IMG/VR virus record: IMGVR_UViG_3300009168_000007 | Location: 534-64,533 of that record | Reading direction: 5' to 3' (one strand) | DNA: 64,000 nucleotides | Source: a virus | Lineage: Duplodnaviria > Caudoviricetes | Part shown: piece by piece, positions 27,018-45,793 of the stretch | Position numbering within the stretch: the stretch's first letter is position 1 | Layout of the letters: each line of letters starts with the position of its first letter | Position numbers and translations under genes: made by a program | The notes under the pieces: generated by a model | The model's database searches: none | The model's input: the letters and a program-made list of their open reading frames with translations, nothing else | Told to the model about the DNA's origin: nothing

Positions 27018-28056
27018 ATTATTGAACGACGTGTATGAGTTTCATAAAAAATATAATGTTCCAATTATGGATGAAGGATCATTGGGTTTTGCCGAGGATG
27101 GTCTGATAGACGCAAAAATTAATCACATAAAAGAAGAAACAAGTGAAATTATCGATGCATGGGCAAAGGAAGATATTTATGATTTTGCCGATGGAATCGT
27201 AGACCTTATTTATGTAACATTAGGACTTGCGATCGTGTGTGGTATACCGTTTGACCGCGTGTGGAATGAGGTACATACCTCTAATATGAAAAAGGTAGCG
27301 GTAGAACGATTAGATCAAAGTAAACGAGGTAATCGGTGGGATGTCGTAAAACCTGAAGGTTGGGAACCCCCGAACATTGAGAAAGCTTTCACGAGCGCAA
27401 AATATCCTTCGGATAATTATGACTTCAATCGCATATTTGTTCTTGAAGGTCCCGACGGATGCGGGAAAACAACCCTTGCGAAACAAATGATGTTCTTGAT
27501 GAGAGGGCTTGGTTTATATCCGTATTACCGTCATTTTACATATCCATTATGGCCGAACGTATCGGACTACATGGCTAATATTATGGTAGACGCGGTCAAT
27601 CAAATCAAGCATGGACCCGTGATCCTGGACAGGTCGTTCATATCGGACATGTTCTATTCCCGCGTGTTCCGTCATAATCGTGGCATAATGTTAGAGGATG
27701 GTATGGCGGAGACGTTGGATTTACTACTCCAGAGAAATGACGTGGTAACGGTTGTTTGCCTACCGGAATTTGATGAGTATCGTAAGAACTATATTACAAA
27801 ATTGAAGGACCATACCGAAATACACACCGAAATTGCCGGCATGGATTGTATCTATATGATGTATTCAATGTTACAAAGATCTCAACGGGTGATCCCGTAC
27901 AACTACAAGATAAACAATATACATTATATCACAAAGTCAATGGAGAAACATATCAGCCAACATGAAATTTCGATCTTCGAATATGCACATTATATCGTAA
28001 ATAACGTGTCGGCCGAAGAGTTACGAGGTAATAGCTATGGCGCTATCGGCGTATGA
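27007..28056 (+). CDS. fusion of MazG/all-alpha NTP pyrophosphatase and dNMP (thymidylate-type) kinase
   Basis: N-half VYEFHKKY..IKEETSE..DGIVDLIYV..EVHTSNMKK..KPEGWEPP; C-half LEGPDGCGKTT and ILDRSFISD. Confidence 0.85.
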   Translation: MGNRLLNDVYEFHKKYNVPIMDEGSLGFAEDGLIDAKINHIKEETSEIIDAWAKEDIYDFADGIVDLIYVTLGLAIVCGIPFDRVWNEVHTSNMKKVAVERLDQSKRGNRWDVVKPEGWEPPNIEKAFTSAKYPSDNYDFNRIFVLEGPDGCGKTTLAKQMMFLMRGLGLYPYYRHFTYPLWPNVSDYMANIMVDAVNQIKHGPVILDRSFISDMFYSRVFRHNRGIMLEDGMAETLDLLLQRNDVVTVVCLPEFDEYRKNYITKLKDHTEIHTEIAGMDCIYMMYSMLQRSQRVIPYNYKINNIHYITKSMEKHISQHEISIFEYAHYIVNNVSAEELRGNSYGAIGV

Positions 28057-29586: not shown

Positions 29587-30570
29587 ATGGAAAATATTAA
29601 AAGTAGTATGTTAGATATGAAGCATAAGATCGGCAATTTTGGATTTGTCGAAGTCGATGGGATGTTTGGCGACGAAAATACAATTGTGAAAGTCGCCCGA
29701 CAATCGATCGGCACAAATATGCCGAAACATGATAAGATCACCTTGATCAAAGAGATCGTGGAATACCGGCATGGGACCCCGCTTGAAGCGTTAAAGATTC
29801 GACTCCACGTGAAAGTTCCTCGTCACGTGTGGGAACAATGGAAACGGTACCGTACCGCTTCATTTGTGGAATTTTCGACTCGCTACTCCGAAGCCATGTT
29901 GGATGCGGAAGTACCGAGTACTACCGATCTTCGATTTGAATCCGAAAAGTTGGTCGATTATCCGACAAATCGGCAAAAGATCATCGAATTGATTCAAGAA
30001 TTTACCGATCGATCGTCAACATTATATTCGGAATTACGAAAGTATGGGTTGTTAAAAGAAATGGCTAGGGGAGTACTAACCATGCTCACGTACACGGAGG
30101 CTTATTGGACGATCGATCTCAATAATCTCTTATACCATTTTTGTCTTCAACGATTAAACCCGCATGCACAAAAAGAGTTTCGTGATTATGCCTATGTCAT
30201 TTCTAAAATCATAGCAGAATGGGTTCCGAACGTGTGGAATGCCTTTGAAAATTACTGGTTAAATTCCTTAACTTTTTCGAGGGACGAGATCATGGCCATG
30301 AATGGACGTGATATGTACACTAATATTACTTACTTTGCCATGACAAAAAAAGAACACACGACCATGGCAAATAAGTTAAAAAGGTTAGGATTAAATCCTG
30401 TAGCCTTTATGGCCAATATCGTTGTGAAGAACGATAATTGGTTCATTGAGAATGTTGATTTATCGAATTTATCGACCACGCATGTGGACAATATAGTAAT
30501 GAAAGACGATAAATATTTTACAAACAGAACTTATCCCGCTTATCCCGATAGATCTGATGGAGAAAAGTAA
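29587..30570 (+). CDS. thyX: flavin-dependent thymidylate synthase
   Basis: VARQS, HGTPLE, RYRTASFVEFSTRY (ThyX RHRxxSxxxxSxR variant), EMARGVL, HAQKEFRDYA. Confidence 0.85.
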   Translation: MENIKSSMLDMKHKIGNFGFVEVDGMFGDENTIVKVARQSIGTNMPKHDKITLIKEIVEYRHGTPLEALKIRLHVKVPRHVWEQWKRYRTASFVEFSTRYSEAMLDAEVPSTTDLRFESEKLVDYPTNRQKIIELIQEFTDRSSTLYSELRKYGLLKEMARGVLTMLTYTEAYWTIDLNNLLYHFCLQRLNPHAQKEFRDYAYVISKIIAEWVPNVWNAFENYWLNSLTFSRDEIMAMNGRDMYTNITYFAMTKKEHTTMANKLKRLGLNPVAFMANIVVKNDNWFIENVDLSNLSTTHVDNIVMKDDKYFTNRTYPAYPDRSDGEK

Positions 30571-31505
30571 TGTCATTTGAGAACGATTTAACCTGGTCAT
30601 ATTCGCGGTATAACAAATTTAGCATGTGCAAGCGCCAATATTTCTATCATTACTATCTGTCATGGGGTGGATGGAATATTGGCGCACCGAAGGATGTCCA
30701 ACTGGCCTATCGTTTGAAAAACCTTATGGGGTTAGCCGGTTGGGTTGGCGACACGATCCATAAGGAGATCGAGACTTTATTAAAGATGCTATCCTCCGGC
30801 ACGACAATGAGCAAAAAAATTCGTGCCGACATTCTTCGAAATTTGCCGAAACAAATGACGAAGGAATGGTTAGCCTCCAAAAAACAAACAATGGAGGGGA
30901 ATCCAAAATCCCTGTGGTTAATAGACCACTATTATAGTCTACAGGTAGATAATAAACTACAGGGACTTATCACTCAGGCCGTAGAGTGTATGTCCAATTT
31001 CCTCGACTCAGGTTTATTCTCTAGTATATTAAAATTAAATATACCGGAGAATTGGTTATCGATCGAGGAACTAAAATTTACCTTTGTTGCTGGGACAAAA
31101 GTGTGGGTAAAGATCGATTTTATCTATAAGGATGATAAGGATTATCTTGTTATGCTCGATTGGAAGACGGGTAAGCGCAAAACGGCGGATGCGGCCCAGA
31201 TGGGGATTTACGGTTGCTATTTACGTGAAACATATAATACATTTCCGGCATACAAAATTAAAGCCGTTGATGTTTACGTGAATAACAATCCACCGGTCCT
31301 TGAACCTTGGATAATTAAGGACAAGGATATTAAGTATGCTGAACAAATGATCACAAAAAGTATTGGCGAGATGATGGATCTTCTCAAAAAGAAGTCCACT
31401 AATACACCAAAAACAATTCAATACTTTCCAAGAGTCAATACGACTTGCCAGGGTATTTGTAACTGGTGTGGTTTTAGGCAATTATGCCATGGAGTCGACA
31501 AATGA
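30570..31505 (+). CDS. PD-(D/E)XK Cas4/AddB-like exonuclease
   Basis: WSYSR..C, KIDF, LDWKTG, Q..IY, C-terminal CNWCGFRQLC. Confidence 0.85.
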   Translation: MSFENDLTWSYSRYNKFSMCKRQYFYHYYLSWGGWNIGAPKDVQLAYRLKNLMGLAGWVGDTIHKEIETLLKMLSSGTTMSKKIRADILRNLPKQMTKEWLASKKQTMEGNPKSLWLIDHYYSLQVDNKLQGLITQAVECMSNFLDSGLFSSILKLNIPENWLSIEELKFTFVAGTKVWVKIDFIYKDDKDYLVMLDWKTGKRKTADAAQMGIYGCYLRETYNTFPAYKIKAVDVYVNNNPPVLEPWIIKDKDIKYAEQMITKSIGEMMDLLKKKSTNTPKTIQYFPRVNTTCQGICNWCGFRQLCHGVDK

Positions 31506-32266
31506 ATAAAAATTACTTGACGGCAGAGGAATATTTCGAAGGGTTACTCCCAGAGTCCAAGGTTCAATATTCGCTTTGGATAAAAGGGCGTGCGGGCGGA
31601 TCGGTCGTTAAACGATTCGAGGATGATATTAATCACGCAAGGCGGTATATAGAAGAACATAAGAGCGGATTAATCAAGGGCGATATGACCGCAGGTTTTA
31701 TCGATTATTATGGTGGAGATGTGGTCGGTGAATCGATTAATGAGCACAATCAAGAATTAATGATTAAGGCTTACAACGCCCTAGCCTTAATCTCCTTGGA
31801 AAAAGACGATATAAAACCTGTGCTACAATATAGTGATCTTGATTATTCGCTCGACGGTTTGATCTCGATTTATCGGGATAAGTTGAAGGGTATCCAAAGG
31901 TCAATGCGTCGTATACACGATATTGACGTGAACGACCAACGTCTTGTTCACGTATGGTGGAATATAATGTTTCAAAGAACCATTAAACCTCCGGCACAAA
32001 CGGAACTATACACAAAATTATTTACATCGATCTTCATTTACCCGTGCGCATACCCACATAGAATATTTAGGTTGCCATGGATACGTGCAGCTTTATCGTC
32101 AGGATTCGAATATTGTCAACTATTTGGTCCGTACATAAATGTAAAAATAGCCACCACAAAAACGGCAGACGACGTTAAAAAATTATTATGTTATGATCCG
32201 ACCCATATCACGGTTCATATCATGGAGGACGGCGATGATCCCACCGAAAACAATGACACTATCTAG
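31502..32266 (+). CDS. hypothetical protein
   Basis: Long ORF with ATGA coupling. Confidence 0.65.
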   Translation: MNKNYLTAEEYFEGLLPESKVQYSLWIKGRAGGSVVKRFEDDINHARRYIEEHKSGLIKGDMTAGFIDYYGGDVVGESINEHNQELMIKAYNALALISLEKDDIKPVLQYSDLDYSLDGLISIYRDKLKGIQRSMRRIHDIDVNDQRLVHVWWNIMFQRTIKPPAQTELYTKLFTSIFIYPCAYPHRIFRLPWIRAALSSGFEYCQLFGPYINVKIATTKTADDVKKLLCYDPTHITVHIMEDGDDPTENNDTI

Positions 32267-32747
32267 TGCGTTTAGCATGCAGGAGACTTGCCTCGCGGTT
32301 GCGGGAGTAATTGCGATCTCAAGATCGAAGGACCCACGTACTAAAGTGGGTGCGGTGGTGTATGACCCGGAAACGGGAGGAATGTTCTTTGGGTATAATG
32401 GGTTCCCAAAAAATATTCCTGATGAAACGGCCATTTGGGAAACACCTAATAAGTACGACTATGTCGTACATGCCGAGGTAAATGCTATCCGTAAGGCCAC
32501 TTCAGCTCTAGGCCATCATGTGTCACGGTGCGAATTATATAGCACCAATCATCCCTGTCATTGTTGCATGAAGGATGCAATCATACCGGCGGGGATCAAG
32601 AAGATCCGTTATATTAATTCTCACCCTGAGGACGAGTTAACGGACGAGTGGATTAAGATGCTTGAAATTGATGTTAGACAATTGACCATCCACATGACGT
32701 TGGAGTTAACGATTAATGGAAAAAAAGTAACATATACGACAAAATAA
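32235..32747 (+). CDS. dCMP deaminase
   Basis: SKDPRTKVGA, GYNG, VHAEVNAI, PCHCC. Confidence 0.95.
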   Translation: MIPPKTMTLSSAFSMQETCLAVAGVIAISRSKDPRTKVGAVVYDPETGGMFFGYNGFPKNIPDETAIWETPNKYDYVVHAEVNAIRKATSALGHHVSRCELYSTNHPCHCCMKDAIIPAGIKKIRYINSHPEDELTDEWIKMLEIDVRQLTIHMTLELTINGKKVTYTTK

Positions 32748-34887: not shown

Positions 34888-35499
34888 ATGGTTGCAACAA
34901 ATAAGTTACAGCAGGCGGCACGGAAGATGTCGCCTGATGAGAAAAAGATGGCCACAATCAGTCTCCTTGTAGCGAAGTATGTGGCCATTTCCGAGGAGAT
35001 CGATTCGAGGGAGGCCGATCTCAAAATCAGGAAAATCGATCTTCGTAACATTGTTGAGGTTGAACTTCCTGAGGCCATGGATGAACTGGGGGTCACGCAA
35101 TTTCAAACAGCTGACGGCTTAGAGATTGAAGTGAATAATGAGACCGCCGGCAACATCTCTGAAGCCAATAAGGAAGCCGCCCATAAGTGGCTCAGGGATA
35201 AAGGTTATGGCGATATTATCAAAACCCAACTAATTATTTGGTTGGGTAAGGGAGAAGATAAGTTAAAGTCAATCGTAACCACGTTTCTTGATAAGAAGAA
35301 AATTGGTTACGAAGATAAGGAAGGAGTTCATGCACAAACGTTGAGAGCATTCATTAAAGAATGCCGCAAAAATGGCGTAAAGTTACCCGAAGATCTCTTC
35401 GGGTTATATGATTACCGTGTTGCAAAGATAAAGAAACTAAAGAAAGATATGAGTAAAACCAATGAAAAAACAACCCACGCCCGCGCCAGCAAAAAATAA
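34888..35499 (+). CDS. conserved phage replication-region protein
   Basis: LPEAMDELG..AHKWLRDKGYGDIIK..VHAQTLRAFIKE; AGGAGG RBS. Confidence 0.75.
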   Translation: MVATNKLQQAARKMSPDEKKMATISLLVAKYVAISEEIDSREADLKIRKIDLRNIVEVELPEAMDELGVTQFQTADGLEIEVNNETAGNISEANKEAAHKWLRDKGYGDIIKTQLIIWLGKGEDKLKSIVTTFLDKKKIGYEDKEGVHAQTLRAFIKECRKNGVKLPEDLFGLYDYRVAKIKKLKKDMSKTNEKTTHARASKK

Positions 35500-36373
35500 A
35501 CCGGTACAAAAAGCATCCGTGAAAACGGCTCCACCGAAGGGCACAAAGAATGCTCTGGTGGTGAAAGAAAAAACCGCACCACCAGTAATTGCATCGTTAG
35601 CGAATAAGATGTATGCGAATCGTAGTCGAGGACTACAAAATATTACCCTTGATGATGTAGCCATACCTTTCGTATCGATTATTCAATCGGGATCCCCACA
35701 GAAAAATCCGCGGCATGAGAAATATATAGAGGGTGCCGAAGAAGGAGATATATTCAACACGGTTACGAATGAATTATACGCATCCGTGGATATTGTCCCT
35801 ACGGCCTACAAGAAAGTATTTGTGGAGTGGAAGGATCGAAAAACCGGCGGTGGATTTGTCCGTATTCATGATAAAAATTCGGCAATCGTTCAGAATGCAA
35901 AACGTAATGAGGACGGTAAGATTGTTCTTAGTAACGGTAACCTACTCGTAGAAACAGCCCAGTTCTTCGTATTACTTGTGGATGTAGATAACCAGGACGA
36001 TATCGTGGGGGTTCAACGGGCCGTACTTGCATTCACAAGCACCCAACTCAAGAAATCACGGAAATGGGTCACTCAGATGCGTGAGTTAATGTTAGACGGT
36101 GATGAGGGATTATTTAATCCACCCATGTTCGCCTATATCTATACAATATCAACACAGAGTGAGTCAAACGACAAGGGTTCGTGGTTCGGGTGGAACATTG
36201 AGATAAATAAAATGGTTGAATCCGAAAGATTATTCGATTTAGCCCAACAATATTCGATATCGATCGACGCCGGTGAAGGTCCTGAGGTTGATTATAGTAA
36301 ATCAGGAATGGACACAGATGTGGTTCCTCCGGTCGAAGACGGCAATGACGACGATGAGCATGACGCCTATTAA
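35462..36373 (+). CDS. putative ssDNA-binding/annealing protein
   Basis: SPQ, EW, STQLKKSRKW, NDKGSWFGW motifs; acidic C-terminal tail. Confidence 0.65.
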   Translation: MKKQPTPAPAKNKPVQKASVKTAPPKGTKNALVVKEKTAPPVIASLANKMYANRSRGLQNITLDDVAIPFVSIIQSGSPQKNPRHEKYIEGAEEGDIFNTVTNELYASVDIVPTAYKKVFVEWKDRKTGGGFVRIHDKNSAIVQNAKRNEDGKIVLSNGNLLVETAQFFVLLVDVDNQDDIVGVQRAVLAFTSTQLKKSRKWVTQMRELMLDGDEGLFNPPMFAYIYTISTQSESNDKGSWFGWNIEINKMVESERLFDLAQQYSISIDAGEGPEVDYSKSGMDTDVVPPVEDGNDDDEHDAY

Positions 36374-39740: not shown

Positions 39741-39920
39741 ATGAGCATATCATTGAAAGAAGCTAAACGTTTAGTAAAAGAATTAGATGAACTTGATGAA
39801 CTAACTGATTGGGAATCACGGTTTATCGAGTCAATGGTTGATTGGGTGATTGAACAAAATCGTCACCCAACAGAAAAGCAATCGAATATATTACAAAGAA
39901 TGGAGGAAGATTATTTATGA
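39741..39920 (+). CDS. small hypothetical protein (59 aa)
   Basis: GGAGG RBS; LTDWESRFIESM...TEKQ; ATGA overlap with next gene. Confidence 0.6.
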   Translation: MSISLKEAKRLVKELDELDELTDWESRFIESMVDWVIEQNRHPTEKQSNILQRMEEDYL

Positions 39921-41128
39921 GACACATATTCGCCAAGAATGTAAATTATGCCTTCGTCGAAGGTATAACCTTAATCGGTAAATACCATATAGAAGTAGCA
40001 CCGAGAGGTATGAAGACGTTTGAATTTGATTCACCCGTTGTTACACAATACCAATTTCCATGCGAATGTATATTATTCAACCGGTTCCGCCAGATTAATC
40101 CATTTTTCCATTTCTTTGAATCATTATGGATATTGGCAGGAAGAAATGATGTGGAGTTTCTTCGTCAATTTAACGAAAAAGTTGTAGACTTTTCTGATAA
40201 TGGTGGTCAATTCCATGGAGCCTATGGATATCGATTAAGAAAACTTGAAAGAATAGTTATTCCGTCGTATAAGCGCACTATAATAGACACTATAACGATC
40301 AAGAGAGATCAGTTAGTCGAGATCGTAAAACTCTTGAAAAGAGATCCTAGTTCTCGGCAGGGGGTTCTTCAAATATGGGACCCGATAATCGACTTGAATG
40401 TCGAATCATCCGATATTCCTTGTAACACGACCGCCTATTTCAAGATACGAGGCAATTATTTAAATATGTCCGTCTTTTGCCGGTCGAACGATCTCATCTG
40501 GGGAGCCTATGGTACAGATTGTGTGCAATTTAGTACCATACAACAATATCTAGCCATGAAGTTAGGATTATCTGTAGGAACGTATCACCACTGGAGCGAT
40601 AGTTTACACGTGTATATCGAACGACCAGATTGGGAATTATATAGTAGTATGGCTGAATGTGGACGATTACTCGCTGAGGATCCATATTTAACGGGCGACA
40701 TTATTCCGAGATATATAATTGGTGACGCCGATCAATTCGATCTTGATATGGAGTTATTTTTTCATATATGGAAAGAACTTTGTGCTAATATCGACCACAT
40801 TTATGGAATAAATTTATGCCCTGGACCCATGAGAAACGACAATTATGAATGGTACCATGACCTAATCGACCGTTTTGATCATCCATATTTTCGAACAGCC
40901 GTTATTCCAATGTTCGTTATGTGGCGATATCATTTATGTTGGAAGAAGTACGGTAAGTTACCGAAACATCATACCCCGATTAAGGATTTACTATATAGTC
41001 ATGATGACTTAAGGTGCGATTGGATACTGGCCGCCGTAAGGTGGCTATTCAAGAAAGAACACAAAGAGGTTCTTCATGTTGACGATTGGATTTATTCTAG
41101 TAATTATCGTAATAATTTTTTGGTGTAG
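39917..41128 (+). CDS. thymidylate synthase-family pyrimidine (hydroxy)methylase, predicted dCMP-specific
   Basis: ESLWILAG, GAYG.R, SRQ, DIPCN (catalytic Cys), RSNDLIWGAYGTD, SLHVY. Confidence 0.85.
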   Translation: MRHIFAKNVNYAFVEGITLIGKYHIEVAPRGMKTFEFDSPVVTQYQFPCECILFNRFRQINPFFHFFESLWILAGRNDVEFLRQFNEKVVDFSDNGGQFHGAYGYRLRKLERIVIPSYKRTIIDTITIKRDQLVEIVKLLKRDPSSRQGVLQIWDPIIDLNVESSDIPCNTTAYFKIRGNYLNMSVFCRSNDLIWGAYGTDCVQFSTIQQYLAMKLGLSVGTYHHWSDSLHVYIERPDWELYSSMAECGRLLAEDPYLTGDIIPRYIIGDADQFDLDMELFFHIWKELCANIDHIYGINLCPGPMRNDNYEWYHDLIDRFDHPYFRTAVIPMFVMWRYHLCWKKYGKLPKHHTPIKDLLYSHDDLRCDWILAAVRWLFKKEHKEVLHVDDWIYSSNYRNNFLV

Positions 41129-41262: not shown

Positions 41263-43200
41263 ATGTTAAAAAAGAAGAACGGAAAATTGATTTGGAGTCC
41301 AACAAAAGATCTACCAGACCTTTCGTCGGCAAGGATGATCGCAGTGGATACGGAGACCTATGATCCACATCTATTGGAGAATGGTCCGGGAGGATATCGC
41401 GGTGATGGACGATTATTAGGAATATCGATCGCCGTGGATGGTTGGTCATGCTACTTGCCGTTAACTCATCCTGTAATCGGTAACGATTATAACATGGATA
41501 TTAATACAGTAAGAAGATGGTTTAACGATCAAATGACGAGGAGGAATCAACCTAAGGTTGGGGCCAGAATTATCTACGACCTCGAATGGTTGGACTCGTC
41601 GGGGTTTGAACTTTCGGGACCATTTTATGATGTCCAGGTCGCCGAACCATTACTAGACGAATATCGAAAGACCTATCACTTGTTGGGTCTTTGTCAACAA
41701 TATCTTTCGGAAAAAGACTGGAAGATCACGAATCAACTTGAAGTCGATGCCGAACAATACATCGGTAAATTTAAAGGTGATGTAAGAAAATATTTGTGGC
41801 AATTACCTGCCGATGTTGTAGCTCCATACGGCGAAATGGATGCTATAAGTACGTTGAAGGTATTCAAGAAACAATTTCCATTGATTACATCTCAAGGACT
41901 TGACAATGTATTTAATATTGAAACTTCACTCATTCCTATGCTCTTGGAGATGAGGAAAAAAGGAATACGGATTAATATGAAGAAAGCCAAGAAGAATATG
42001 GCGGTATTACAAGAAAGTGAACGTGACGCCATGAAGGAGATCAAAGATCTCGTCGGTTGGGAACTAGCTATCCGTTCCCCTGATGATCTTCAAAAAGCAT
42101 ACGATAAATTGAAGATTGATTACCCGCTCACGAAGAAAACAAAAAAGGCTTCGATCACGTCGGATTGGTTACAAAATCAGGACGATCCGTTATCTTCACT
42201 TATACTCAAGACTCGACGGATTAATACGGCATGGAATAACTTCATTGAGAAGGGGATATTCCAACACGTTTGTGATGGTCGTATTTATTGTACCTTTAAT
42301 CAACTTCGTAGCGATGAATATGGCACGGTATCAGGAAGATTCTCGTCTTCCCAACCAAACCTACAACAACAACCGGGAAGAACGGAATCATTCTCAGAAC
42401 AAATTCGTGAATTGTATGTTCCGGACTCGGGGGAGCAATGGTGGCAAATTGATTGGTCACAAATAGAGTACCGGTTCATGGTCCATTATGCCTACATCCG
42501 CGGACTAAGAAAAGCAAACGTGGCCAGGGATAAGTATTGTGATAATCCCAAGACCGACTTCCACCAAATGGTCGCGGATCTTTGTGGGATCGACCGTAAA
42601 CCCGCAAAGAACATCAATTTCGGGTTGGCCTACGCCATGGGCAAGTCGAAGTTGGCCGTAAAACTTGGCCTTCCCAAGGCCGAGACTGATATAATCTTCA
42701 AGAAATATTTTGAGGAAACTCCGTTCATCAGTTTATTGTTGGAGGATGTGGGAAAAAGAGCGGACGCAAAAGGATACATCACCACGATTCTCGGTCGTCG
42801 GGCGAGGTTCGACTTATGGGAACCAAAGGGAAATTACAAAGGTAAGGAAGATTACAAGGAACCGTTCAATCATGATCTAGCCGTGAGCGCGTACGGGGAG
42901 AATGTCGTACGGGCGCGCACGTACACGGCACTTAATCGTCTTATCCAAGGATCCGCGGCTGATTTGATGAAGTTGGCCATGGTAAAAACTTATGAGTCAG
43001 GTGTGTATGGGATTCTCGGAATACCAGGAATCACGGTCCACGATGAACTCGACGGGTCCATGCCGAAAACAAAAGAGGCTAAAAAGGCCCTCATGGAAAC
43101 GGCCAACATCATGGAGACATGTTTAAAACTCGAGGTTCCAATCGCTACAGATGTTGCGATAGGTCCAGATTGGTACCATGTAAAGGACATAGAGAGATGA
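41263..43200 (+). CDS. polA: family A DNA polymerase with 3'-5' exonuclease
   Basis: VDTET, SGRFSSSQPNLQQ, DWSQIEYR, KNINFGLAY, NRLIQGSAAD, VHDE. Confidence 0.97.
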   Translation: MLKKKNGKLIWSPTKDLPDLSSARMIAVDTETYDPHLLENGPGGYRGDGRLLGISIAVDGWSCYLPLTHPVIGNDYNMDINTVRRWFNDQMTRRNQPKVGARIIYDLEWLDSSGFELSGPFYDVQVAEPLLDEYRKTYHLLGLCQQYLSEKDWKITNQLEVDAEQYIGKFKGDVRKYLWQLPADVVAPYGEMDAISTLKVFKKQFPLITSQGLDNVFNIETSLIPMLLEMRKKGIRINMKKAKKNMAVLQESERDAMKEIKDLVGWELAIRSPDDLQKAYDKLKIDYPLTKKTKKASITSDWLQNQDDPLSSLILKTRRINTAWNNFIEKGIFQHVCDGRIYCTFNQLRSDEYGTVSGRFSSSQPNLQQQPGRTESFSEQIRELYVPDSGEQWWQIDWSQIEYRFMVHYAYIRGLRKANVARDKYCDNPKTDFHQMVADLCGIDRKPAKNINFGLAYAMGKSKLAVKLGLPKAETDIIFKKYFEETPFISLLLEDVGKRADAKGYITTILGRRARFDLWEPKGNYKGKEDYKEPFNHDLAVSAYGENVVRARTYTALNRLIQGSAADLMKLAMVKTYESGVYGILGIPGITVHDELDGSMPKTKEAKKALMETANIMETCLKLEVPIATDVAIGPDWYHVKDIER

Positions 43201-44938: not shown

Positions 44939-45793
44939 CTATTCTCTAAAAAGGTATTCATTACACCCTAAACTACCTCCGCAGGTTTTCATCTTTTCCA
45001 AAATAAAATTCCTTTTCCGGAAAAAATATAGTATTTCTTCCGGTTTTGCCACCTCGAAAGGGTATCCACCTACCCAGTCCACCATATTATGCCATCGACT
45101 CATCCCACGGTTCATATCGTACGTGGACCATGAGCGAAGATAATTAATTCTTGAGGAAATAAATCGGCGTGGTGAAAAAAACAAAGATAACGGATTAAAA
45201 AAATACATCAACTCTCTAGGAATCATCACGAAAAATATAAATGAATTTTGTAAAAATAATGGCAATTTATTATATGTCTTTTTAATTATATGCCAAAATT
45301 TGCTCCATCCATTTTGATCGTTATAAATTGATATATAAAGTAGTCCGTTAGTTTTTGCCAAATTGGTAACATTAGATAACGCTTGCCACATGTTACCCGT
45401 ATGATGTAAAACACCCCAGGAATATACCACGTCATATTTTTCCAAACTCGTCAAGAAACTCTTGTCCAATATCGAACCCTCTTCTATAGTCCAAGAATCA
45501 TCATTGGGGAAGTATCTATTTTTTAATTCTCTTGTGCATGCGACTGATTGTAGGTCATAATCAAAAGAACATACTTTAGCGCCTAACCTGCGAGCGGCCA
45601 AAGAGAAAGCACCACTACCAGAACCAACATCAATAAAACTTTTTCCTTTTAAATCACTAACATCTAACATGTCTTTCAAAGAGTTTTCGAATTTTACTAT
45701 TCGTTCCTCATTTAATAACAATAAAAAGTGCTTCCAATTTTGACCAAAAGCGAAACGTTCACCTGAGCATATCTCCTTATCGATACTAATCAT
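44939..45793 (-). CDS. class I SAM-dependent methyltransferase (polysaccharide-cluster type), low-GC insert
   Basis: RFAFGQNW, FIDVGSGSG, YSWGVLHHTG, DWVGGYPFE; visibly AT-richer than neighbours. Confidence 0.9.
   Translation of the reverse strand: MISIDKEICSGERFAFGQNWKHFLLLLNEERIVKFENSLKDMLDVSDLKGKSFIDVGSGSGAFSLAARRLGAKVCSFDYDLQSVACTRELKNRYFPNDDSWTIEEGSILDKSFLTSLEKYDVVYSWGVLHHTGNMWQALSNVTNLAKTNGLLYISIYNDQNGWSKFWHIIKKTYNKLPLFLQNSFIFFVMIPRELMYFFNPLSLFFSPRRFISSRINYLRSWSTYDMNRGMSRWHNMVDWVGGYPFEVAKPEEILYFFRKRNFILEKMKTCGGSLGCNEYLFRE

Follow-up and report, generated by a model that had tools for sequence, protein, structure and literature searches.

A thymidylate-synthase homologue with aspartate at the base-specificity position as a predicted dCMP hydroxymethylase in a freshwater-sediment phage

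Results

A thymidylate-synthase homologue lies beside a family A DNA polymerase

The window, meaning the whole 64,000-nucleotide stretch of DNA analyzed here, belongs to a complete, siphophage-like phage genome of 64.5 kb with a freshwater-sediment origin. Table 1 presents the gene of interest, its diagnostic residues and the pathway genes that accompany it. Inspection of the gene reveals an intact ORF whose ATG start shares the sequence ATGA with the stop codon of the preceding ORF and which terminates in TAG. The Asp-bearing motif and the catalytic DIPCN described in the original prediction both reside in this ORF, as residues 189-206 (RSNDLIWGAYGTDCVQFS) and 166-170, respectively. The 403-aa protein matches Pfam PF00303 (2.1e-17; 63.6 bits, where the curated cut-off is 24.3) and the PHROG 5131 'thymidylate synthase' profile (3e-88, spanning residues 3-383), and its AlphaFold2 model has a mean pLDDT of 87 and a pTM of 0.89. 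Because of these three scores, the ORF is a real gene and a chance motif is excluded. For this predicted, not solved, structure, Foldseek assigns a probability of 1.00 both to MilA and to a large number of ThyA structures.

Table 1. Positions of the predicted hydroxymethylase gene, its diagnostic codons and the associated pathway genes, in window coordinates
Feature	Position	Strand	Basis
MazG-like nucleotide pyrophosphohydrolase (residues ~3-135) fused to a P-loop thymidylate-kinase-like domain (~143-262)	27007..28056	+	Pfam, PHROG
ThyX (flavin-dependent thymidylate synthase), presumed to provide dTMP	29587..30570	+	Pfam Thy1 2e-36
dCMP deaminase with the zinc motifs HAE and PCxxC, presumed to supply ThyX with dUMP	32193..32747	+	Pfam, motifs
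Predicted dCMP hydroxymethylase, thymidylate-synthase fold, Asp form	39917..41128	+	403-aa ORF, PF00303, PHROG 5131
Asp166-Ile-Pro-Cys169, catalytic Cys and hydroxymethylase-signature Asp at Cys-3 (Asp166, 40412-40414; Cys169, 40421-40423)	40412..40423	+	Alignments; rule in the available text of PMC6400193 and PMC13326640
Asp192, codon GAT, equivalent of ThyA Asp169, retained	40490..40492	+	Alignment and codon check
Asp201, codon GAT, equivalent of E. coli ThyA Asn177 and T4 gp42 Asp179, base-specificity residue	40517..40519	+	Alignments
Family A DNA polymerase (PolA), directly downstream of the hydroxymethylase gene	41263..43200	+	ORF, tblastn

The PRA-PH, deaminase, thymidylate-synthase and PolA domains all lie within the replication module of this genome, and the same domain set surrounds deaminases in cytosine-modified metaviromes, according to the available part of 10.1101/2024.12.05.627091. 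The fusion protein matches Pfam PRA-PH (2.6e-11), phrog_671 (1.2e-25), phrog_761 (3.2e-11) and DR2231 MazG-like (2.8e-07), with a P-loop that reads GPDGCGKTT; Atlas viral Tmk-family clusters provide a lead only for its kinase half. It is a candidate for both the dNTP-to-dNMP and the modified-dNMP-to-dNDP steps. Because DR2231, the closest relative of the MazG half, is a dUTPase, dCTPase activity is not indicated for this domain. The dCMP deaminase matches Pfam dCMP_cyt_deam_1 (5.8e-16) and MafB19-deam (7.4e-11). The polymerase shares at most 42.7% tblastn identity with annotated DNA polymerase A genes of isolated phages and is syntenic with the thymidylate-synthase homologue in Asp-form loci, and would be the enzyme that incorporates a modified dNTP.

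A separate ThyX, which the original prediction had named as the source of dTMP, is indeed encoded in the genome and matches solved ThyX structures (6j61, 3.6e-35; T. maritima, 2.1e-28). Its RHR signature, whose residues bind FAD at the phosphate and ribityl groups, reads RYR, with Tyr replacing His. ThyX activity is therefore assumed here. Word-indexed searches for relatives by which to judge the RYR variant returned only this ThyX itself. Pfam and PHROG scans recognized no glycosyl- or carbamoyl-transferase among 38 further ORF translations, and no DHFR among the ORFs scanned.

Diagnostic residues point to cytosine as substrate and a hydroxymethyl product

Asp201 occupies the ThyA Asn177 column, as originally proposed, in three independent alignments, namely one by MAFFT that includes E. 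coli ThyA and two by phmmer, against MilA and against a ThyA (MAFFT displaces T4 gp42 Asp179 by one column). The same column holds the Asp of MilA and the Asp of the enzyme from the 5mC phage Xp12, and holds Asn in five of five hmU-lineage references (M6, Manatee Spring 'hmase', SPO1-type, ViI-type and PhiW-14). The WGxxGAN motif, correctly given in the original prediction for the phage dUMP hydroxymethylases that the protein otherwise resembles, reads WGAYGAN in M6 gp58 and WGTFGAN in the SPO1-type enzyme, versus WGAYGTD in the query, where Thr rather than the Ala of M6-type enzymes precedes the specificity Asp. In the available text of PMC8670742 and PMC13326640, N177D makes dCMP the preferred substrate, and by this reading Asp201 would select dCMP.

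Equivalents of the thymidylate-synthase residues Glu58, Tyr94, the catalytic Cys, Arg166, Ser167, Asp169, His207 and Tyr209 are all present (E68, Y103, C169, R189, S190, D192, H231 and Y233), and Cys169 reads as the nucleophile by published diagnostic residues. Only columns 200, 201 and 215 carry a residue found in at least four of five Asp forms but in less than 15% of Asn forms, so the hydroxymethylase active site is otherwise unchanged between the two states.

The product is addressed by Asp166, three residues before the catalytic Cys and equivalent to ThyA Leu143 and gp42 Asp145. Asp stands at Cys-3 in the query and in 12 of 12 Asp forms; a regular expression finds it in 298 of 334 Asn forms, where the other 36 may reflect a different Cys caught by the pattern. 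These counts use the contiguous Cys-3 register, the large MAFFT alignment having placed gaps wrongly in the loop that precedes the catalytic Cys, such that its L143 column was unusable. Asp at this position is needed for hydroxymethylation, and T4 D145N yields no product, in the available text of PMC6400193; Asp166 thus reads as a mark of a hydroxymethyl rather than a methyl product. For methylases the rule holds imperfectly, since the Xp12 dCMP methylase carries Asn, not a bulky hydrophobic residue, at Cys-3. A further signature, D169N, distinguishes the 5-hydroxy-dCMP synthases, for example RB69 gp48 and DLP3 gp80 (PMC13326640, as far as its section 28 reports). It is absent from the query, and by the retention of Asp192 the enzyme reads as something other than a 5-hydroxy-dCMP synthase. 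Of the three products originally put forward (5mC, 5hmC and 5-hydroxy-C), the presence of Asp at Cys-3 and the absence of D169N allow the prediction to be narrowed to 5hmC.

The aspartate state is rare, derived and repeatedly gained

The query falls within the family of long-form hydroxymethylases found in M6, SPO1-type, ViI-type and PhiW-14 phages. Among 346 sampled members, the specificity column is Asn in 334 and Asp in 12. Every non-Asp member (334/334) carries Asn, which indicates that the position is strongly constrained. The query's partner in the tree is one other Asp form, the adjoining branch is an Asn form, and the outgroup lineages are Asn throughout. A carefully built tree requires four Asn/Asp changes, forced by its starred branches (bootstrap range 4-5), a rebuilt tree likewise gives four, and a single Asp clade is rejected in an AU test (p 6.2e-6). 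The Asp state is a rare, derived condition gained repeatedly within an Asn lineage, and the origin from an hmU-type lineage that the original prediction suggested is borne out by this nesting. A fast tree of 263 rows was set aside for poor resolution; in it, gp42 groups with E. coli ThyA at the end of a very long branch, apart from the query.

Literature searches turned up no account of Asp forms within the M6-type lineage, and the MetaGPA set of 433 thymidylate-synthase sequences and the IMG/VR list of the preprint (10.1101/2024.12.05.627091) may include some. A search of isolate genomes with the Asp pattern, intended as a lead to a host or prophage, gave no match, nor did a megablast of 10 kb against phages.

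Genome content changes with the specificity residue

Comparison of Asp-form and Asn-form genomes reveals that the surrounding genes differ as well. The 5-hmdU-DNA-kinase helical domain (HMUDK_hel, PF18723) is encoded in 30 of 32 Asn-form genomes and in none of three Asp-form genomes (Fisher p 0.0015), while ThyX is missing from all 32 Asn-form genomes and present in two of the three Asp-form genomes (p 0.005), a co-occurrence that rests on three Asp-form genomes and two independent origins. The two ThyX-positive genomes come from different Asp origins; no ThyX was seen in the third (G001), which is 71% complete. A profile scan of the query genome found neither PF18723 nor PF18748. Together with Asp201, the absence of HMUDK_hel and the presence of ThyX favor the original view of the enzyme as a predicted modifier of cytosine rather than uracil.

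Two further candidates for Asp-specific partners were rejected. The second complete Asp-form genome (G002) lacks both the deaminase and the PRA-PH domain, so this accessory set is not general. A methyltransferase gene at 25831-26571 has homologues in G001 and G002, but 6 of 32 Asn-form genomes carry one as well, and 9 of 80 Asn-form loci have one that lies 1-4 kb upstream of the thymidylate-synthase gene; the solved relatives of this methyltransferase are generic class-I enzymes only.

Comparison with characterized enzymes

Within PHROG 5131, the query shares ~32% identity over 97% of its length with M6-like enzymes (M6 gp58, SPO1-type) and nests among them. The shared features are the catalytic Cys, Asp at Cys-3, RSND and a helical C-terminal extension, along with a gene position beside PolA in the replication module. 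The M6 gene is flanked by HMUDK_hel, HMUDK and ADDT-type thymidine-hypermodification genes; the query genome is without these and has ThyX instead.

The query is predicted to catalyze the same reaction as T4 gp42, whose Asp179 and Asp145 correspond to Asp201 and Asp166, and the T4 pathway follows an analogous logic of separate thymidylate synthase, dCMP deaminase, nucleotide pyrophosphatase and dNMP kinase. The enzyme is predicted to work like gp42, yet falls outside its orthologous group. Identity is 19%, the short form of 246 aa in T4 contrasts with the long form here, and the predicted cytosine specificity of the query arose independently, inside the Asn lineage. The genomes also differ in that no glucosyltransferase is recognized in the query genome and that its thymidylate would come from ThyX rather than a ThyA-type Td. 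The best solved sequence match is MilA (8.3e-20; PDB 5b6d, 5jnh, 5jp9), the CMP 5-hydroxymethylase of mildiomycin biosynthesis, which is also the best match to the predicted fold (TM 0.79-0.86 normalized to MilA, ~380 aligned columns) and likewise has Asp at both signature positions. MilA differs in belonging to bacterial secondary metabolism, in preferring a ribonucleotide and in sharing 22-24% identity with the query.

Discussion

We conclude that the gene product is probably a dCMP hydroxymethylase (5hm-dCMP synthase) that depends on folate and would supply 5hmC for phage DNA. By analogy with T4 gp42, Cys169 would attack C6 of dCMP, with the cytosine recognized by Asp201, which would protonate N3; a one-carbon unit would pass from methylene-tetrahydrofolate onto C5, and water activated by Asp166 would hydrate the exocyclic methylene to give 5-hydroxymethyl-dCMP. 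Phosphorylation of this product could plausibly fall to the kinase domain of the MazG-kinase fusion, and its incorporation to the phage PolA; virion DNA would then contain 5hmC or a derivative. Thymidylate would be made separately by the dCMP deaminase followed by ThyX. A search of public runs for read-level evidence of modification located the DNA in one run only, as contigs, probably from the source sample.

Cytosine methylation is the first process against which this assignment must be weighed. A dCMP methyltransferase like that of Xp12, giving phage DNA with 5-methylcytosine, would explain the Asp at the 177 position and the dCMP deaminase and PRA-PH pyrophosphatase that both genomes encode, and the available part of 10.1101/2024.12.05.627091 predicts seven deaminase-linked Asp-type enzymes to make 5mdCMP, with 5mdC production stated as confirmed for five. 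We nevertheless regard it as unlikely. Asp166 is the hydroxymethylase signature (PMC6400193, in its available text), and the query nests in the hydroxymethylase family with 26% identity to the Xp12 enzyme, a short form of 289 aa. Dihydrofolate would be released by a methylase, yet no DHFR was recognized among the ORFs scanned, whereas in Xp12 a DHFR-noted gene is the second one downstream of the enzyme. Xp12 also has a single thymidylate-synthase-fold gene and no ThyX. A 5mC phage can obtain dTTP through deamination of 5mdCTP with no need for a second synthase, as the same preprint describes in the part available, and so the separate ThyX of the query genome is consistent with a hydroxymethyl product, the situation in T4.

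The remaining alternatives alter the substrate or the fate of the product. That the enzyme is still a dUMP hydroxymethylase which tolerates Asp, with hmU DNA as in its relatives, is highly improbable: the closest characterized lineage (M6, SPO1-type) does make 5hm-dUMP, the rest of the active site is retained and the deaminase could supply dUMP, but such tolerance contrasts with the invariant Asn of the other family members, with the absence of an hmU-DNA kinase helical-domain gene and with the presence of ThyX. Mutagenesis of the specificity residue in ThyA and gp42 moreover switches or abolishes specificity (PMC8670742 and PMC6400193, in the text available). Other outcomes from a cytosine nucleotide, whether a flavin-dependent 5-hydroxy-dCMP synthase, a MilA-like CMP (ribo) hydroxymethylase or a 5hm-dCMP subsequently deaminated to 5hm-dUMP, are together very unlikely. 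They draw on MilA as the best solved match, on the thymidylate-synthase homologues with new chemistry described in 2026 (PMC13326640, in part) and on phage deaminases of which some act on 5hmdC forms (10.1101/2024.12.05.627091, in part). The first conflicts with the missing D169N, and the placement of the gene in a DNA replication module beside PolA argues against such outcomes; a route to hmU through 5hmC would be a needless detour where the family produces hmU directly, and the kinase helical-domain gene is again absent.

The Asp177 rule and the metagenome-scale and IMG/VR mining of such genes are already published (PMC8670742; 10.1101/2024.12.05.627091). The novelty is modest, with the rule, the chemistry and the large-scale mining of Asp-type homologues in print and no new kind of biology involved: cytosine hydroxymethylation already ranks among the established anti-restriction modifications of DNA, and would have been reached here through a substrate switch in a uracil-modifying family. 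If the assignment as a dCMP hydroxymethylase is correct, this would be a 5hmC-containing, siphophage-like freshwater-sediment virus with an enzyme independent of the T4 enzyme's origin, and it would provide a second, unrelated scaffold for pyrimidine hydroxymethylase engineering. The family would then represent a natural experiment in which a single residue switches the target base, repeatedly, with the surrounding pathway rewired to match through the absence of hmU-DNA kinase genes and the presence of ThyX.

A more extended reading, which we consider unlikely, is that on at least four occasions an hmU-hypermodifying lineage exchanged thymine for cytosine as its modified base through a single Asn-to-Asp substitution, losing the hmU-DNA kinase module on each occasion, with ThyX in the two lineages that have complete genomes, and that 5hmC is here decorated further to give an undescribed cytosine hypermodification. 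Such decoration might fall to the pair of class-I SAM methyltransferases in this genome, or to unassigned ORFs that neighbour the MazG-kinase fusion. For metavirome annotation, the residue state, HMUDK_hel and ThyX combine into a three-marker call that would separate T-modified from C-modified DNA.

Family and predicted product of the target enzyme

The 403-aa protein encoded by the target gene matches Pfam PF00303 (2.1e-17) and, over residues 3-383, PHROG 5131 (3e-88). From an alignment of 40 sequences, AlphaFold2 produced a confident model (pLDDT 87, pTM 0.89). Its top structural matches are MilA entries, with TM scores of 0.79-0.86 normalised to MilA across ~380 columns that include the C-terminal helices; the match to ThyA structures is confined to a core of ~237 columns. 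Relative to M6 and most relatives, residues ~108-130 (window 40238-40306) hold an insertion of ~20 residues, RKLERIVIPSYKRTIIDTITIKRDQ, which is modelled at lower confidence (pLDDT 72-74). Three related proteins, P0067 (719 aa), P0068 (574 aa) and P0120 (643 aa), are far longer than other family members and each align to the query in three discrete segments, which suggests that they carry an insertion or fusion; they were left out of alignments.

The protein contains both motifs on which the original prediction was built (residues 189-206 and 166-170), and Asp201 does fall at the Asn177 position of E. coli ThyA, both when reference enzymes from annotated records are aligned by MAFFT and in independent phmmer alignments to MilA and ThyA. 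In the phmmer alignments, Asp201 lies opposite the matching Asp in MilA and opposite Asn in a solved ThyA, and Asp166 lies opposite the Asp that MilA has three positions ahead of its Cys. Inspection of the MAFFT column reveals Asp also in the 5mC phage Xp12 and Asn in all five hmU-lineage references (M6 gp58, the Manatee Spring 'pyrimidine hmase', and SPO1-type, ViI-type and PhiW-14 enzymes), where the motif reads WGAYGAN in M6 gp58 and WGTFGAN in the SPO1-type enzyme. Asp179 of T4 gp42 is shifted by one column through gap placement; its distance from the Gly is the same as that between Gly and Asn in E. coli ThyA. On these three sequence alignments, Asp201 would be the equivalent of Asn177.

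Exchange of Asn177 for Asp is reported to move preference from dUMP to dCMP, and position 177 to be the top residue separating TS homologues of cytosine-modified from unmodified contigs at metagenome scale (PMC8670742). The position three residues ahead of the catalytic Cys (Cys-3) is described as holding Leu in ThyA and Asp or Glu in hydroxymethylases (PMC6400193; PMC13326640 section 24); in T4 gp42 this residue serves to activate the water substrate, and no 5hm-dCMP is formed by the D145N mutant (PMC6400193; PMC13326640). D169N is given as the mark of flavin- and O2-dependent 5-hydroxy-dCMP synthases (PMC13326640 section 28). With Cys169, Asp166, Asp192 and Asp201, the query is predicted by this published residue code to be a dCMP hydroxymethylase. 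That is to say, of the three products proposed originally the code retains 5hmC and speaks against 5mC and 5-hydroxy-C. At Cys-3 the methylase of Xp12 carries Asn where a bulky hydrophobic residue would be expected, and the Cys-3 rule is therefore firm for the acidic state only.

Rarity and origins of the Asp state

Among 1,404 cluster representatives from an exhaustive search (E<=1e-30), the nearest to the query is P0002, at 45% identity. The best 150 of these comprise 145 Asn and 5 Asp forms, 256 database proteins of <=450 aa comprise 250 Asn and 6 Asp, and of the IMG/VR relatives, which number at least 597, the best 80 all have Asn. Asp-specific DNA patterns recovered two true Asp forms among five IMG/VR matches, the other three being chance, and six matches in JGI metagenomes, all true (among them one fragment and one repeat of an IMG/VR form); the same patterns recovered none from isolate genomes. 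Pooled counts are 334 Asn versus 12 Asp. Within the best 150, only columns 200 (Thr in Asp forms versus Ala), 201 and 215 set the two forms apart, where a residue had to occur in at least 4/5 Asp forms and <15% of Asn forms.

A 41-row IQ-TREE LG+C20 tree combines these 12 Asp forms with the Asn forms nearest to them and five references. Four Asn/Asp changes are forced by its starred branches, with a bootstrap range of 4-5. The query groups with P0002 (98/90), with the Asn form P0003 as sister (97/97), in keeping with the proposed substrate switch inside an hmU-type lineage that otherwise has Asn. The remaining Asp groups are P0204 with P0096, P0042 beside an Asn form, and a high-GC clade of seven beside P0135 and close to M6 gp58. 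The trait columns were retained, which tilts the tree in favour of one origin. When it was rebuilt on a fixed alignment, the number of changes was again four, and an AU test rejected monophyly of the 12 Asp forms (delta lnL 173.7, p 6.2e-6). Asp is the derived state because all outgroup lineages have Asn, a direction that rests on outgroup rooting.

Genomic setting and the separate ThyX

The IMG/VR record comprises 64,533 bp (window, bases 534-64533) with direct terminal repeats and a CheckV completeness of 100%. Exactly one TS-fold gene lies in the window, its own ATG overlapping the stop of the upstream ORF, inside a + strand replication and nucleotide-metabolism module (Table) assigned from Pfam and PHROG profile matches, motif and Atlas structural clusters. 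The only public run with window DNA, as contigs, is a freshwater sediment metagenome, which is probably its origin.

Table. Features of the replication and nucleotide-metabolism module and nearby ORFs, in window positions.
Feature	Position	Strand	Remark
Class-I methyltransferase	25831-26571	+	first in module order
MazG-like pyrophosphatase fused to P-loop thymidylate-kinase-like domain	27007-28056	+	second
ThyX	29587-30570	+	third
PD-(D/E)XK nuclease		+	between ThyX and dCMP deaminase
dCMP deaminase	32193-32747	+	
SNF2 helicase		+	after dCMP deaminase
Pam3-gp33-like and gp34-like proteins	34888-36373	+	after SNF2 helicase
AEP primase		+	after gp33/gp34-like genes
Helicase		+	before target gene; phrog_1967 'DNA helicase' match
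Target gene	39917-41128	+	
PolA	41263-43200	+	next after target gene
Lysozyme		+	after PolA; last in order
Four ORFs, 158-260 aa	28225-29374, 26541-27017, 31484-32266	+	no Pfam/PHROG match
Second class-I SAM methyltransferase	44939-45793	-	

A separate ThyX (Pfam PF02511) is indeed encoded, and it bears on whether the product might instead be methylated, as in Xp12. PRA-PH, deaminase, TS and PolA domains are reported to cluster on cytosine-modified metavirome contigs, and 5mC phages such as Xp12 to obtain dTTP via 5mdCTP deamination, with no second synthase needed (10.1101/2024.12.05.627091); Xp12 has one TS-fold gene and no ThyX. Because 5mC phages need no second synthase, the separate ThyX favours a hydroxymethyl over a methyl product. 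Its signature reads RYRTASFVEFSTRYS, with Tyr for the His of the RHR found in solved ThyX enzymes and in the ThyX of G002, another Asp-form genome; the RHR residues hydrogen-bond FAD phosphate and ribityl groups (PMC6514825). The other residues seen in alignments to 6j61 and T. maritima ThyX are conserved. Matches to Pfam and to solved ThyX structures are strong, and word-indexed searches of a large protein database gave no relatives. The protein has a C-terminal extension of ~100 aa.

In the pyrophosphatase-kinase fusion, the MazG half has DR2231 as its closest solved relative and the kinase half carries a GPDGCGKTT P-loop. One of the nearest Atlas structural clusters has 98% of members with the dUTPase family, and such fusions may recur in phages.

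Pfam and PHROG scans of 38 further window ORFs recognised no glycosyl- or carbamoyl-transferase downstream of hydroxymethylation; the four ORFs lacking matches among the nucleotide-metabolism genes are the obvious places for candidate further modification enzymes. Both methyltransferases are of the generic class-I SAM type, and the similarity between them is weak (31% over 78 aa). The module's own has homologues in G002 and in G001, the third Asp-form genome, and also at 9/80 Asn-form loci, 1-4 kb upstream of the TS homologue. The Pam3 gp33-like and gp34-like genes adjoin the SNF2 helicase in the window and in G002 (L012; 3390-4564); the G001 locus (L010; 10521-11102) has the gp34-like gene only.

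Kinase and ThyX markers across genomes

M6 gp54 is an experimentally shown 5-hmdU DNA kinase and gp51 an amino-acid:DNA transferase (PMC8989533); M6 gp55 matches Pfam HMUDK_hel at 8e-56. By whole-record HMM search, HMUDK_hel (PF18723) occurs in 30/32 Asn-form genomes (G003-G032, M6 and Manatee, MW202557), G005 and the Manatee record being without it, and in 0/3 Asp-form genomes, of which the query's and G002 are complete and G001 is 71% complete (Fisher p 0.0015 for all genomes, 0.024 for complete genomes only). A tblastn search with gp55 gave matches at 67/80 Asn-form loci and in 0/3 Asp-form genomes. The HMUDK kinase (PF18748) was detected in 7/32 Asn-form genomes, five above cut-off, and in 0/3 Asp-form genomes. 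Either the PF18748 HMM is insensitive in these genomes or, in most such phages, the partner of the helical protein is a divergent kinase.

ThyX shows the opposite distribution, occurring in 0/32 Asn-form genomes (30 IMG/VR records >=40 kb, M6 and Manatee) and 2/3 Asp-form genomes, the query's and G002 (Fisher p 0.005). In G002 it lies directly upstream of the Asp-form gene, and neither a deaminase nor a PRA-PH domain was found in that genome. No ThyX was found in the 43.9 kb of G001 examined; this virus is also on a 61.7 kb metagenome contig. The query's genome and G002 have different Asp origins and ThyX proteins only 28.6% identical, and thus provide two independent contrasts. The association is suggestive and statistically not strong, since relatedness inflates the Fisher values. 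Its pathway logic is coherent: Asn forms would feed hmU into a DNA-level thymidine-hypermodification system, whereas phages with Asp forms would lack that system and encode their own dTMP synthase.

No second distinct TS-fold gene occurs in the 32 Asn-form genomes. One and the same Asn-form TS gene is matched twice (L048, L050), near opposite ends of one 46.7 kb contig, G016, classed linear by IMG/VR, which suggests terminal duplication or an assembled concatemer.

Relation to known systems

The query is predicted to work as T4 gp42 does but lies outside the gp42 group, being of long form, 19% identical and nested in the M6-like family. Its ancestry places it in the M6/SPO1-type family, yet it lacks both the defining Asn and the association with an hmU-DNA kinase gene. 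The Asp177 rule goes back to the early 1990s (cited in PMC8670742), and MetaGPA has used it on 433 TS sequences from the environment. We found no literature on repeated Asn-to-Asp switching in the hmU-type lineage or on HMUDK_hel/ThyX exchange, and supplements may list such sequences. A 2024 preprint screened IMG/VR for contigs carrying both a deaminase and an Asp-type TS homologue (10.1101/2024.12.05.627091), a filter that the query's record would pass.
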